From positions 1 through 18,546 of the forward strand of contig CAYVSA010000040.1 in NCBI GenBank assembly GCA_964454175.1: DNA of 18,546 nt, in the 5' to 3' direction. The position numbers are program-made. The stretch comes from an uncultured Pseudomonadota bacterium. GTDB lineage: Bacteria; BMS3Abin14. Below are positions 3,001-6,000 of this stretch, in pieces (position 1 is the stretch's first letter; every line of letters starts with the position of its first letter).

Positions 3001-6000
3001 AGCATCTACTTCGTTATCGACCTTCGGCAATCCTCAGTGTATTAAATATACGCTTCCGGTTGCCTCAGGCCTGCTGCCTCGTATCTACTGCACTCTGTCG
3101 AGCCGTTTTCCATTAATTGCGGCTGCCACAGCACAGCATCTACTTCGTTATCGACCGTCCTTAATTGTTATGTCTCTCAAATATTCCGGGACAACCTTCA
3201 ACTTTCAACATTAAACTGTTTAGATGAACACGCTTTACTACACTTTTATCTCTTTTTCGTCAAATATTTAAATCAGTTGTTCTATTTTATCACCTGGAAC
3301 CTGGAACTTGGAACCTGGAACTCGTTAAAAGGGTAACCGTCCAAGGGGCCCCTTCCCTTTTCCCATTCTCTTCATCATCTTTTTAGTTTCGGCGAACCGT
3401 TTGAGGAGGCGGTTTACCTCAGTCACTGTAGTTCCCGAGCCGCCTGATATCCTCTTCCTCCTGCTGCCGTTAATGATCTTTGGATTTCTTCTTTCGGCCG
3501 GGGTCATGCTGTCTATTATGGCTGTGATGCGAACCAGCTCATTTTCGTCCAGCTGGGAGGGCATGGCCTTCTTCATCTTGCCGGGCAAAGGTATCATGGA
3601 CATCATTTCCTGCAGGGAGCCCATATTCCTCAACTTTGAGAGCTGGTCCCGGAAGTCTTCCAGGTCGAATTCACCGCGGACCTGCTTCCTGAGTGTTTTT
3701 TCAGCTTCCTTTTCATCAAGTGTTTTCTGTGCCCGGTCGATCAGTGTGAGGACATCGCCCATGCCCAGGATCCTGGAGGCCATCCGTTCCGGGTGGAACG
3801 GCTCCAGACCATCATAACTTTCGCCGGTCCCCGCAAACTTGATGGGGACCCCAGTTACTTTTCGCATGGAGAGGGCTGCCCCTCCCCTTGCATCGCCGTC
3901 AAGCTTGGTAAGTATTATGCCAGTCAGTACCAGCTTTTCATGGAACACTTCGGCTACTTTGACGGCATCCTGACCGGTCATGGCATCAGCCACGAGGAGG
4001 GTTTCGTGAGGATGAATGATGCCGGAGAGTCGCTGCACCTCTTCCATAAGATCGTCATCTACGTGGAGCCTTCCGGCCGTGTCTATTATGACCGTGTCAG
4101 CTCCTGATCTGCCGGCTTCAACCGCAGCTTCGCGATACACACCCTCGGGTACAGTTCCCTGCTGAGGGACAAACGCCGGGACTCCCGCGCTTCCTGCTGC
4201 CTGGATGAGTTGATCAACTGCCGCGGGCCTGCTCATGTCCGCAGGAATAAGGTAGGGTCTCTGGCCCTGTTCTTTCAAATAGAGGGCGAGCTTAACAGCT
4301 GTGGTAGTTTTTCCGGAGCCCTGGAGCCCGACAAGCATTATGCGGGTTGGCGGTACCGACGCCCGGTCCAGAGAGACCCTTGCCCCACCGAGGATCTCCC
4401 CCATTTCTTCGCGGACTATTTTAATGACCTGCTGTGCTGGAGTGAGGCTTTCCAGCACTTCACTGCCGGATGACCGCTCCCTTATCTGTGCAACAAAGTC
4501 CTTCACGACTTTGAAGTTGACATCGGCTTCCAAAAGGGCTAGCCTGACCTCCCTGAGGGTGGAGTCGAGGTCTTTTTCGGTTAACCGCCCTCTATTTTTG
4601 AGTCTTTTGAAGATGGTTTCGAGTTTGTCGGACAGATCCTGAAACATGGCCATGACCACAGGTTTTACCATCCATTAAGTGTTTTTTGAAGTATGTTGTT
4701 TTTTTTTGGTTGAAAGTTTAATGTTTAATGTTGGAAACACGGGGATATAAAACAAGCAATTTGTCAACTTTCAACCTTGATAGTGTCGTAAAAAGTCCAC
4801 GAGTGGCTTTTTACTCCTCGGAAAGCGAAAAGTGTCATTTTCCCTTTCCTCTCGAATCAACAACTTGCGCTGCAAGTAATTGATTCGGGCGTCCTTTAAA
4901 GGACGCATTGATGACTTTTTACGAAGTCATCAACCTTAAACTGAGAAATTCATGAACGAAGTTTTCCTTATCATAATCAGCACGGTTTTCGTCAACAACT
5001 TCGTGCTGGCCAGGTTCCTCGGCCTGTGCCCGTTCATGGGCGTTTCCAAACGGATAGAGACCGCCACCGGGATGGGCATGGCTGTTGTCTTCGTCATGAC
5101 GGTTGCTTCGACCGTAACGTGGCTCATCCAGACCTTCATCCTGGTTCCCTTTACCCTGCAGTACCTCCAGACGATCATGTTCATCCTGGTTATCGCTTCC
5201 CTCGTACAGTTCGTCGAGATGTTCATCAGGAAGATCAGTCCTACACTATATCAATCACTGGGGATATTCCTTCCCCTTATCACGACAAACTGCGCCGTTC
5301 TGGGTGTGGCACTTCTTACGGTCCAGACAGGTCTCGGTTTTTTCCAGACGATAACATTTGCCTTCGGGTCCTCTCTGGGATTCACCCTGGCCCTCGTGCT
5401 CATGGCTGGGATACGAGAACGGCTCGAGATGGCGGACATCCCCAGACCCTTTAAGGGAACGGCCTCGGCATTCATCACCGCCGGGATACTTTCCCTTGCG
5501 TTCATGGGTTTTTCCGGAATGGTGAAATAAACCGAGATGATCTCTGCAGTCGCTTCAATCACAGGCTTGGGTTTCATAGCTGCCTTCGGTCTTGGTATCG
5601 CTTCTAAAAAATTCCACGTAGAGATCGATCCCCGCCTTGAGACTCTGGAAACCATGCTCCCGGGACTCAACTGCGGAGCCTGCGGTTTCCCGGGCTGCCC
5701 GGGCTTTGCCGAAGGTCTGCTGGAAGGTAAAGTGGAACCGACAGACTGCGGCCCCGGTGGTGAGGATGTCGCTAAACAAGTGGCAGAGTTCCTGGGGCTC
5801 GAAGTCTCAGGGGTCGTGAGGAAGATAGCAGTTCTCAAGTGCGGCGGGGGGACCAGCTGCGCTGAGACCGAGGCCGAGTACGAGGGTGTCCATGACTGCC
5901 GTGCGGCAGTCCTCCTCGGCGGCGGCGGAAAAGCCTGCAGGTATTCGTGTGTTGGTTACTCTACCTGCGAGAAAGTATGTCCCTTCGACGCGATTAAAAT

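Follow-up and report, generated by a model that had tools for sequence, protein, structure and literature searches.

The window analysed here is an 18,546-nucleotide stretch from the genome of an uncultured bacterium (termed G000), and 16 genomes of its phylum were compared in all. Between the divergent genes ffh and rnfA, the window holds one copy of a repeated element with inverted ends and five hairpins. The boundaries of this element were determined from alignments of copies from G000 and 12 other genomes, and from comparisons of filled and empty sites. The features of the locus are as follows.

3325..4671, minus strand: ffh (signal recognition particle protein), on the left of the element and divergent from rnfA (TIGR00959, 566 bits)
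4710..4730, plus strand: heptamer array TTGAAAG TTTAATG TTTAATG, facing the TCAACTT TCAACCT units at 4764-4777
4771..4778, plus strand: left copy of the flanking direct repeat, TCAACCTT, with core ACCT at 4774-4777 or CC at 4775-4776
4777..4933, plus strand: whole copy of the element, a probable MITE of 157 nt, TTGATAGTG... to ...GTCATCAA (copy alignments and filled/empty sites)
4777..4797, plus strand: left terminal inverted repeat, TTGATAGTGTCGTAAAAAGTC (inverted-repeat pair I5; 52-copy consensus TTGATAGGGTCGTAAAAAGTCC)
4788..4814, plus strand: hairpin 1, which holds the inner half of the left inverted repeat (fold)
4820..4849, plus strand: hairpin 2, almost invariant in sequence (fold)
4852..4888, plus strand: hairpin 3, the longest of the five, with the most variable sequence (fold)
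4889..4906, plus strand: hairpin 4, with a G+C-rich stem (fold)
4908..4933, plus strand: hairpin 5, a terminal palindrome that includes the right inverted repeat (fold)
4913..4933, plus strand: right terminal inverted repeat, GACTTTTTACGAAGTCATCAA (reverse-complement consensus TTGATGACTTCGCAAAAAGTCA)
4930..4937, plus strand: right copy of the flanking direct repeat, TCAACCTT, with core ACCT at 4933-4936 or CC at 4934-4935
4952..5530, plus strand: rnfA, first gene of the rnf cluster (TIGR01943, 289.6 bits)

A preliminary description had placed a repeat of 149 nt at 4785-4933. The repeat itself was recovered, but its extent proved to be wider (4777-4933): the window copy scored 157.2 bits over positions 1-156 of a 156-position whole-element model, whose start corresponds to 4778. 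The end consensus was derived from 52 unique full-length copies taken from G000, 11 other genomes and named MAG records. In both the window and this consensus, the ends are imperfect 21-nt terminal inverted repeats of the form TTGAT-NNNN-TCGYAAAAAGTC; the inverted pair I5 of the window spans 28 nt with 75% complementarity. Copies align as DNA over their entire length. The element is non-coding: every frame is interrupted by stops, and 4777-4933 contains no ORF of at least 80 aa. A four-hairpin subfamily of G000 (contigs C39, C2, C84 and C13) lacks hairpin 5, the stem of hairpin 3 has a wholly different sequence in some G000 copies, and truncated, tandem and four-hairpin forms are abundant.

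Only 18 nt separate the end of the window copy from the start codon of rnfA, and the copy lies downstream of a TTTGTCAA motif that is conserved in front of rnfA in relatives. On the basis of these two features it has probably either entered the rnf leader or displaced it. A conserved TGTTTGTCAAGG motif lies upstream of rnfA. Screening of 4600-5050 returned 0 promoter-like sites and a single weak terminator-like site, on the minus strand. The left flanking repeat overlaps the first two bases of the element. The insertion in the window is specific to G000: a copy at rnfA was found in 0 of the 13 other genomes compared, of which 11 preserve the ffh-rnfA adjacency.

Iterative nhmmer searches of G000 (E ≤ 1e-3) recovered 29, then 43, then 46 hits, and the 156-position model (E ≤ 1e-5) gave 30 matches in 25 loci. 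The high copy number reported earlier was thus reproduced, at about 30-46 copies. Seven of the 25 loci touch contig ends. The G000 loci lie between crude ORF calls (coding fraction 0.89); the statement that copies always fall between genes holds for nearly all of them, but one overlaps a 92-aa ORF and another has an overlap of 25 nt. Presence in 15 of the 16 phylum genomes was also reproduced, the complete 2.8-Mb genome G001 being the one with no match. First-look candidates numbered up to 276 (in G004, a 2.3-Mb genome), of which 40 per genome were scored. The element had been called phylum-wide; this describes 15 of the 16 genomes, but the phylum consists of a single family with 9 genera. Its restriction to the phylum was borne out by 0 matches in 8 outgroup genomes but not by a scan of 185,579 species genomes, in which low-copy members were detected in three MAGs labelled Zetaproteobacteria. 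The Ffh proteins of these MAGs are 46-48% identical to that of the window, compared with 71% within the family. In the MAG with the 46%-identical Ffh, a 35-kb contig carries a copy whose flanks form a perfect ACTCCT/ACTCCT pair.

An exact 20-mer of hairpin 2 had 0 matches among viral contigs. In contigs of three metagenome runs covering 3300-8000, the summed depth was far higher at the element bins than at the flanks, and none of these contigs bridged an empty site. One metagenome contig joins an element end to an element start with GTA between them. We found no description of the element in the literature searched, from which subscription journals and supplements were excluded.

Copies were found in each of the four gene contexts, on either strand. 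Both orientations occur, as had been noted, but unequally: between co-directional genes, 8 copies were antisense and 4 sense in G000, and 11 were antisense and 2 sense among the named MAG loci (a count that leaves out 73 of the 93 loci), giving 19 antisense against 6 sense when pooled. Divergent gene sites exceeded convergent ones by 11 to 2.

Folding of 4785-4933 reproduced the five hairpins on both strands, with -62.1 kcal/mol and a z-score of -8.82 on the plus strand (0 of 200 shuffles as good) and -64.6 kcal/mol and a z-score of -9.40 on the minus strand. A concern raised with the original proposal was that its alignment had been fitted to the structure and hence favoured the fold. Covariation was assessed here on two MAFFT alignments fitted to no structure, A1 (47 copies) and A2 (30 copies from 13 genomes), and compensatory changes persisted on both. 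In A2, 89.3% of cells were paired and 22 of 55 pairs had changed on both sides, against 8.4 ± 2.0 in shuffled alignments (0 of 500 as high), while slid controls reached at most 49.4% pairing with 9-17 such pairs. The corresponding values for A1 were 92.4% and 14 of 55 pairs, against 7.2 ± 1.5 (0 of 500). Compensatory changes had been claimed for all five helices. In A2 they were observed in hairpins 1 (4 of 11 pairs, counted over helices 1 and 2 of the alignment), 3 (7 of 15), 4 (3 of 7) and 5 (7 of 11), but only 1 of the 11 pairs of hairpin 2 had changed on both sides; with 97.0% of its cells paired, this nearly invariant hairpin draws its support from conservation, not from covariation. G-U or U-G cells numbered 73 and A-C or C-A cells 54, and 35 and 51 when two loop-closing pairs were removed. 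Since G-U is not clearly above A-C, neither strand is marked as an RNA strand. Rfam gave 0 matches at the gathering score across the window, in agreement with the earlier statement that it holds no such family; on 4600-5100 there were two matches, both at chance level (E 0.59, the best at 15 bits, and E 5).

The sequences that border the copies point to insertion into a palindrome-like target, yCAA-NN-TTGa, which resembles two abutted element ends. Among the 52 copies, the central 2 nt of the two flanks were identical in 21 (4.85 ± 2.0 in 2000 re-pairings, maximum 12), the central 4 nt in 16 (1.66 ± 1.2, maximum 7) and all six nt in 11 (1.2 ± 1.0, maximum 6), and a register test peaked at a single offset. 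The central dinucleotide did not match in 31 of the 52. The duplication is 2-6 nt long, most likely 4 bp (A-Y-N-T); its exact length is blurred because the target consensus AA-NN-TT mimics the element termini. Beyond the target core the flanks showed no inverted symmetry (2.71 matches of 8, against 2.58 ± 0.16). Tandem copies abut as ATCAA-NN-TTGAT with one spacer in common. Filled and empty sites were found at three orthologous loci, including that of the window. At one of them, G004 is filled and G011 empty, with flanks 87% and 79% identical and 204 nt against 22 nt in between; this spacer was too diverged for exact breakpoints, which were obtained at a site filled in G012 and empty in both G006 and G028, where the predicted empty site was fitted without gaps. 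The inverted heptamer arrays seen beside the window copy are also present in G006, at the corresponding empty site.

The preliminary description had found no mobilising enzyme. A candidate autonomous relative can now be proposed, an insertion sequence of about 1.9 kb whose ends match the end consensus of the element at 15-19 of 21 positions in G005, G008, G011 and 7 metagenome contigs. The two resemble each other in these 21-nt ends alone, and their interiors are unrelated. In G005 the insertion sequence directly adjoins a copy of the element, and the same transposase-proximal end is present in three genera. Six full copies from metagenome contigs (1,863-1,901 bp) carry the 21-nt repeat at both ends, and a flank duplication was seen in 0 of the 6. 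The flanks of some copies are palindromic or inverted, with short units reiterated in tandem beside the ends. The single ORF encodes a DDE transposase of 580-597 aa with the Pfam domains DUF772 and DDE_Tnp_1, joined by DDE_Tnp_1_6 in relatives. These domains, the one ORF, the inverted ends and a length within the 1.3-1.95 kb of the IS1182 family (ISfinder) are of the IS1182 type. The NCBIfam IS1182 model NF033551 was covered from position 28 to 487 of 488, but at 116-184 bits (150-184 bits for the end-to-end alignments), below its curated cut-off of 270 bits, and we therefore describe the insertion sequence as IS1182-like without assigning it to that family. More than 4,000 relatives of the transposase were present among the candidates scored.

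Within the phylum, the transposase was detected in 4 of the 16 genomes, belonging to three or four genera, as one intact but C-terminally short protein, two fragments and one relative with 29% identity. None was found in G000, in G004 and G012 (the highest-copy genomes tested) or in the three Zetaproteobacteria-labelled MAGs. As MAGs often lose insertion sequences and most relatives lie on contigs of about 2 kb, this absence is weak evidence. A search of G000 for pairs of terminal inverted repeats 0.5-6 kb apart returned nothing convincing, and an all-against-all comparison of its 1,942 crude ORF products gave no multi-copy protein. Genes with an rve domain, present in 6 of the 16 genomes, were rejected as partners, none having the element's ends; across the other transposase loci scanned (12 rve and the remaining DDE_Tnp_1), the end motif occurred only where a copy of the element lies. 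In G003, one IS3-like gene adjoins scrambled element fragments.

The element is thus non-coding and shorter than 300 nt, with inverted ends, a target duplication, insertion polymorphism and a candidate autonomous insertion sequence that has the same ends. From the inverted ends, the flank duplications, the filled and empty sites and this candidate partner, we conclude that the family very probably consists of MITEs, non-coding DNA transposons with 21-nt inverted ends, which an IS1182-like transposase probably mobilises. Its most plausible classification is a new family within an established type of mobile DNA, as opposed to a new class of RNA. We propose that the IS1182-like transposase binds the shared ends and moves the MITE in trans. 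By analogy with IS1272, it may prefer palindromic or stem-loop targets; such a preference would account for the palindromic nature of the target, for tandem and nested arrays, and for the way copies cluster with other insertion sequences. Hairpins 1 and 5 would be the element ends folded back, and hairpins 2-4 may be cargo palindromes, kept by selection on DNA extruded as single strands or cruciforms during transposition, or via effects on transcripts. Two observations are not explained by transposition alone, namely the changes on both sides of the pairs of hairpins 3-5 and the skewed orientation. There is some chance, albeit a low one, that the hairpins are read by a structure-dependent transposase both as ends and as targets, and/or that the element has been co-opted as an RNA or DNA module with a strand-specific effect. 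In the former case a MITE made of five successive palindromes, all able to form cruciforms, would serve both as substrate and as landing pad, and a transposase that reads hairpins would explain the tandem and nested arrays, the (TTGAnnn)n heptamers beside ends and at empty sites, and the compensatory pairing across a phylum-level lineage. The 19:6 antisense skew and the 11:2 divergent excess hint at a co-opted strand-specific module in promoter-proximal regions.

Four other explanations were weighed against the MITE reading. The repeat could spread because its RNA is useful, as structured non-coding RNA genes or as cis-regulatory RNA modules. The retention of all five hairpins in 9 genera and the double-sided changes at 22 of 55 pairs speak for such an RNA, the antisense excess points to some strand-specific effect, and the window copy lies in a probable rnfA leader. 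However, copies occupy every gene context on either strand, they are gained and lost at orthologous sites, and truncated, tandem and four-hairpin forms abound. Neither the wobble pairs, which mark no RNA strand, nor Rfam, which has no family, nor the surroundings of the window copy, with 0 promoter-like and 1 weak terminator-like site, speak for an RNA gene, and the orientation skew is also expected from selection against harmful insertions. We consider this explanation improbable. A host-selected DNA module, whether structural or protein-binding (a nucleoid-protein, gyrase or terminator site), spread by recombination and with its palindromes kept perfect by template switching, the pairing as such having no function, would agree with the lack of strand asymmetry in wobble pairs and with the modular partial copies. 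Intrastrand template switching can homogenise palindromes and so mimic compensatory change. Such a module is nevertheless very unlikely, given that filled and empty sites are precise and show duplicated target bases, that the ends are in common with a transposase-bearing insertion sequence, and that a copy lies in a distantly related genome.

The remaining two explanations invoke other mobile systems. Hairpin-rich, strictly intergenic, long-lived and lineage-confined copies recall REP or REPIN palindromes, which a domesticated Y1 (RAYT) transposase copies on single-stranded hairpins, and 8 of the phylum genomes encode Y1_Tnp proteins of 202-345 aa. A Y1 transposase hit had also been mentioned earlier, a lead that we abandoned: PF01797 occurs in 10 of the 16 genomes but is missing from G000 and five other carriers, is found twice in G001, which has no copy, and none of the 6 Y1 loci examined has a copy of the element within 1.5 kb. 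To our knowledge, moreover, REPINs do not combine terminal inverted repeats with target duplications, both of which are present here, and they flank a single-copy Y1 gene; we regard this origin as extremely unlikely. Just as poor a prospect is a non-autonomous IS200/IS605-type element (PATE) or an omega-RNA-like free-standing guide RNA of a TnpB or IscB nuclease, in spite of the subterminal hairpins at both ends, of the TTGAT at the left boundary, which recalls the target pentanucleotide of ISDra2, and of a size and multi-hairpin shape like those of guide RNA scaffolds. IS200/IS605-type elements, as far as we know, lack both inverted ends and target duplications, and they insert in a single orientation on the 3' side of a short, fixed word, whereas the ends here are inverted and the flanking word is variable and duplicated. 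As for a guide RNA, Rfam, which includes such scaffolds (e.g. HEARO), gave no match, although no search was aimed at TnpB itself.

Reading the element as a MITE family explains a conspicuous repeat of an uncultured phylum-level lineage (16 species genomes). With 7 of 25 G000 loci at contig ends, it also indicates why assemblies of this lineage break. The element could be used for strain typing and for dating insertions, and it documents MITE movement into distantly related vent or mat bacteria. It would further provide a natural MITE partner for a poorly understood and very abundant branch of IS1182-like transposases; targeting of stem-loops without duplication has so far been inferred in the IS1182 family from one staphylococcal insertion sequence. 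For RNA discovery it calls for caution, as strong fold z-scores, covariation and phylum-level conservation can all stem from mobile palindromic DNA.

Several known systems resemble parts of this picture. Like the BOX elements of Streptococcus pneumoniae, the element is a modular multi-hairpin intergenic repeat with a variable number of modules and possible effects on neighbouring genes; for BOX, we know of no identified transposase partner or matching insertion-sequence ends, whereas here a candidate partner was identified by its shared ends. With REP/BIME sequences and REPINs it has in common a high copy number, strictly intergenic location, hairpin formation, persistence in a lineage and modular mosaics, but the distribution of Y1 genes does not track it. 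IS1272, a staphylococcal member of the IS1182 family, is reported to target inverted-repeat or stem-loop structures, to leave no duplication and to have a tandemly duplicated left end (PMC5678879); that article describes no MITE partner, the word MITE having 0 occurrences in it. The partner insertion sequence resembles IS1272 and its family in its length of about 1.9 kb, its one ORF and its DUF772, DDE_Tnp_1 and DDE_Tnp_1_6 domains. As reported for IS1272, it lacks a flank duplication (0 of 6), and in some copies it has palindromic or inverted flanks and short tandem repeats by its ends. It scores below the 270-bit cut-off, which places it on a distant branch, and the MITE copies, unlike those of the partner, have short duplications. 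Bacterial MITEs include the Correia elements of Neisseria, RUP, Nezha and Chunjie. MITEAba12 is reported as a further example (PMC6382973). The present element shares with bacterial MITEs in general a size of about 100-200 nt, the absence of coding capacity, inverted ends, short target duplications, tens to hundreds of intergenic copies, and ends that match a full-length insertion sequence which would supply the transposase. It differs from them in that its body is built of five separate local hairpins and not of one long end-to-end stem, and in that its pairing has survived double-sided changes in 9 genera. Its suspected partner is IS1182-like, its target is a palindrome-like 10-mer, and the family spans a phylum-level lineage (one family).

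The five-hairpin intergenic repeat is very probably a family of miniature inverted-repeat transposons (MITEs). The window copy belongs to a metagenome-assembled genome (MAG) of 2.17 Mb in 135 contigs, G000, and lies on its contig C40. Alignments that included the flanks corrected its boundaries, moving the start 8 nt upstream of position 4785, where the preliminary description had placed it.

Features around the window copy
3325-4671, - strand: ffh, left neighbour of the element, divergent from rnfA
4771-4778 and 4930-4937: flanking direct repeat TCAACCTT
4777-4933: the element
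4952-5530, + strand: rnfA, right neighbour of the element

The window copy has imperfect inverted repeats at its ends (TTGATAGTGTCGTAAAAAGTC ... GACTTTTTACGAAGTCATCAA), and the end consensus of 52 unique full-length copies reads TTGATAGGGTCGTAAAAAGTCC on the left and, reverse-complemented, TTGATGACTTCGCAAAAAGTCA on the right. Hairpin 1 arises when the left repeat's inner half pairs with the sequence directly after it, and hairpin 5 when the right repeat's outer half pairs with the sequence directly before it. Bases outside the ends were directly repeated in one register only.

Flank identity among 52 copies, compared with 2000 re-pairings
Central 2 positions: 21/52 copies, expected 4.85 ± 2.0, maximum 12
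Central 4 positions: 16/52 copies, expected 1.66 ± 1.2, maximum 7
All six positions: 11/52 copies, expected 1.2 ± 1.0, maximum 6

The excess was located at the central two positions, was smaller at the next two and fell to zero at the outer two. Near-invariance of the outer A and T holds on the element side (51/52) but not on the far side (41/52). From this pattern we read the duplication as about 4 bp (A-Y-N-T), inside a target yCAA-NN-TTGa that resembles two element ends joined directly; the same empty site would also follow from a duplication of 2 bp or 6 bp, either of which may be the true length. Tandem copies share one common spacer, ATCAA-NN-TTGAT, and on a metagenome contig 4932 is joined to 4777 with GTA between them.

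Filled and empty orthologous sites were seen in three comparisons. A site filled in G004 is empty in G011, of the same genus, where the flanks (87% and 79% identical) lie 22 nt apart. Another, filled in G012, is empty in both G006 and G028, and the predicted empty-site sequence fits there without gaps. The window copy is unique, as none of the rnfA loci of 13 other genomes carries one, while the ffh-rnfA adjacency is kept in 11 of these 13. A conserved motif, TGTTTGTCAAGG, precedes rnfA by about 80-100 nt in at least nine phylum genomes (loci L168-L179). Its G000 counterpart, TTTGTCAA at 4760-4767, lies just before the site where the MITE inserted, and the insertion puts about 160 nt between motif and rnfA.

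The five consecutive hairpins were upheld by folding 4785-4933 on the + strand (-62.1 kcal/mol, z -8.82) and on the - strand (-64.6 kcal/mol, z -9.40), with 0/200 shuffles as good in each case. Rfam yielded no match at gathering score over the window and just two around the element, both at chance level, in agreement with the earlier statement that no such family exists there. The compensatory changes previously claimed for all five helices were re-tested on MAFFT alignments made blind to structure. In alignment A2 (30 copies from 13 genomes, 13 of the copies from G000), 89.3% of cells were paired and 22/55 pairs changed on both sides, compared to 8.4 ± 2.0 in shuffles (0/500); kinship among copies makes this shuffle test overstate the support, a flaw from which the slid controls (at most 49.4% paired, 9-17 pairs changed on both sides) are free. 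In alignment A1 (47 copies), which is skewed toward the conserved hairpin 2 by the route used to find loci, 92.4% of cells were paired and 14/55 pairs changed on both sides, compared to 7.2 ± 1.5 in shuffles. The claim thus stands on alignments not fitted to the structure, but unevenly: hairpins 3 and 5, with 7 double changes each, provide most of the total, whereas hairpin 2 is nearly invariant, with 1.

The window holds a second repeat, a 134-nt unit present as 2.3 perfect tandem repeats at 2852-3159, between ffh and an ORF at 2550-2861. A 70-80% identical copy lies at 1013-1137 between trmD and rplS, and another on contig C56. One unit folds at -50.6 kcal/mol on the gene (-) strand, and Rfam gave no match for the repeat, which might serve the ffh-rimM-trmD-rplS cluster as a leader or form a second family of repeats there.

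Iterative nhmmer searches of G000 gave 29, 43 and then 46 hits, and a 156-position whole-element model 30 hits at 25 loci (E ≤ 1e-5), 7 of which touch a contig end. The high copy number was confirmed, and the placement always between genes holds relative to crude ORF calls (89% of the genome covered) except for two overlaps, one with a 92-aa ORF and the other 25 nt long. Partial or modular copies are common, including tandem units, internal deletions and a four-hairpin subfamily without hairpin 5. At 4619-4769 of G000 contig C104, the loop of hairpin 5 encloses a complete hairpin-1-like unit in a nested arrangement. Among the 16 genomes of the phylum (one family, 9 genera), matches were again obtained in 15, the complete 2.8-Mb G001 being the sole exception; first-look candidates reached 276 (G004) and only 40 per genome were scored, so these counts are not true copy numbers.

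Restriction to the phylum did not hold on a global scale. None of eight outgroup genomes matched, but an exact 20-mer of hairpin 2, scanned against 185,579 species, each represented by one genome, returned 97 loci, 93 confirmed by nhmmer and 4 chance matches. Most carriers are MAGs of the window's own lineage, but three are labelled Zetaproteobacteria (4, 1 and 2 matches; two on 73-kb and 35-kb contigs). Ffh in these three shares 46-48% identity with the window's (71% within the family, 44% for an outgroup), and genes beside the copy on the 35-kb contig share 49-57% identity with unlinked genes of G000, so low-copy members exist outside the phylum too. Binning errors may explain the lone copies on 1.6-2.5 kb contigs of three further MAGs with other labels.

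Both orientations occur, as described before, but not equally. Between co-directional genes, 8 G000 copies are antisense and 4 sense, and at the named MAG loci 11 and 2 (73/93 loci could not be judged), or 19 and 6 when G000 loci and L013-L109 are pooled; the ratio of divergent to convergent sites is 5:1 and 6:1 (pooled 11 vs 2), all of these being small counts in which orthologous copies may be entered twice. The skew points to a strand-specific effect, and would fit selection against harmful orientations or equally a co-opted function. A pure RNA gene is at odds with the insertion polymorphism and the four gene contexts, and also with the lack of promoter-like sites and of wobble asymmetry: pairing cells held 73 G-U/U-G against 54 A-C/C-A, or 35 against 51 once two loop-closing pairs were left out, no clear excess, so that neither strand is marked as the RNA strand. 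A RAYT/REPIN origin, to which the Y1 transposase lead pointed, was dropped: PF01797 is missing from G000 while occurring twice in G001, a genome free of copies, and no copy lay within 1.5 kb of it at the 6 loci checked. Weak Y1_Tnp ORFs of RAYT-like size (202-345 aa, 35-52 bits), unlinked to the element, were seen in 8 genomes (G004:C43, two in G001:C1, G010:C1, G009, G003, G012, G007, G002). An IS200/IS605-type element fits neither the inverted ends nor the variable, duplicated flank.

As a source of transposase for the MITE, G000 offered no multi-copy protein, and no long element enclosed by end motifs was convincing. Among phylum DDE_Tnp_1 loci, G005 contains an insertion sequence (IS) with two MITE-like ends, separated by a 2-nt spacer from an adjoining MITE copy; at the remaining transposase loci scanned, the end motif occurred only where a MITE copy was itself present.

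Transposase-proximal IS ends
G005: TTGACGGCATCGCAAAAAGTA
G011: ATGACGGACTCGCAAAAAGTA
G008: TTGATGGCTTCGCAAAAAGTA

A metagenome scan with the transposase protein gave 7 loci, with 6 complete elements of 1,863-1,901 bp that have the repeat left and right. Of the 21 positions of the MITE end consensus, 15-19 are matched by the IS ends, and outside these 21 nt IS and MITE are unrelated. Full-length transposases (580-597 aa; DUF772, DDE_Tnp_1, DDE_Tnp_1_6) have more than 4,000 relatives, mostly on ~2-kb contigs, and align end to end with the NCBIfam IS1182 model at 150-184 bits, under its 270-bit cut-off, hence the name IS1182-like rather than family member. The transposase occurs in only 4/16 phylum genomes (intact but C-terminally short in G005, fragments in G008 and G011, a 29% relative in G003). 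Searches of G000, of G004 and G012, both rich in copies, and of the three MAGs labelled Zetaproteobacteria did not find it; MAGs lose IS easily, which makes this absence weak evidence against the IS as partner. We consider this IS a likely candidate partner of the MITE.

Short arrays of TTGAAAG-type heptamers (CTTTCAA on the other strand), frequently in inverted pairs, were observed at several places.

Heptamer arrays
4710-4730 and 3195-3215 of the window
G000 contigs C13, C24, C29 (two) and C36
L175 (G006), upstream of rnfA
IS flanks in loci L156, L155 and L139

G000 has 8 arrays of at least three units, compared to 5 in a reversed-genome control; 7/8 are of the TTGAAAG type, every one intergenic. 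Arrays flank IS copies, some of which lie between inverted arrays whose heptamers start as the IS end does, (TTGAAAG)n ... (CTTTCAA)n; in G006, where the rnfA site is empty, they stand at that site as well. Such arrays may be reiterated ends, or footprints left by transposition. In G003, scrambled, partial or tandem MITE fragments adjoin an IS3-like orfA/orfB pair (L123 on contig C157, 2239-2573) and a bona fide IS1182-family transposase of 343 bits (L146 on contig C79, 992-1285), which suggests that mobile elements cluster or target one another's palindromes.

The original observation is right and its statistics hold. IS1272, of the IS1182 family, is reported to insert into inverted-repeat structures, to make no duplications and to have a tandemly duplicated left end (PMC5678879); the IS copies resemble it in their lack of flank duplication (0/6) and in the inverted-array flanks of some of them. 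The element adds a new member to an already known kind of mobile DNA, the MITEs. Its unusual traits are the five hairpins maintained in a chain, a palindromic target accompanied by reiterated heptamers, and the skewed orientation.
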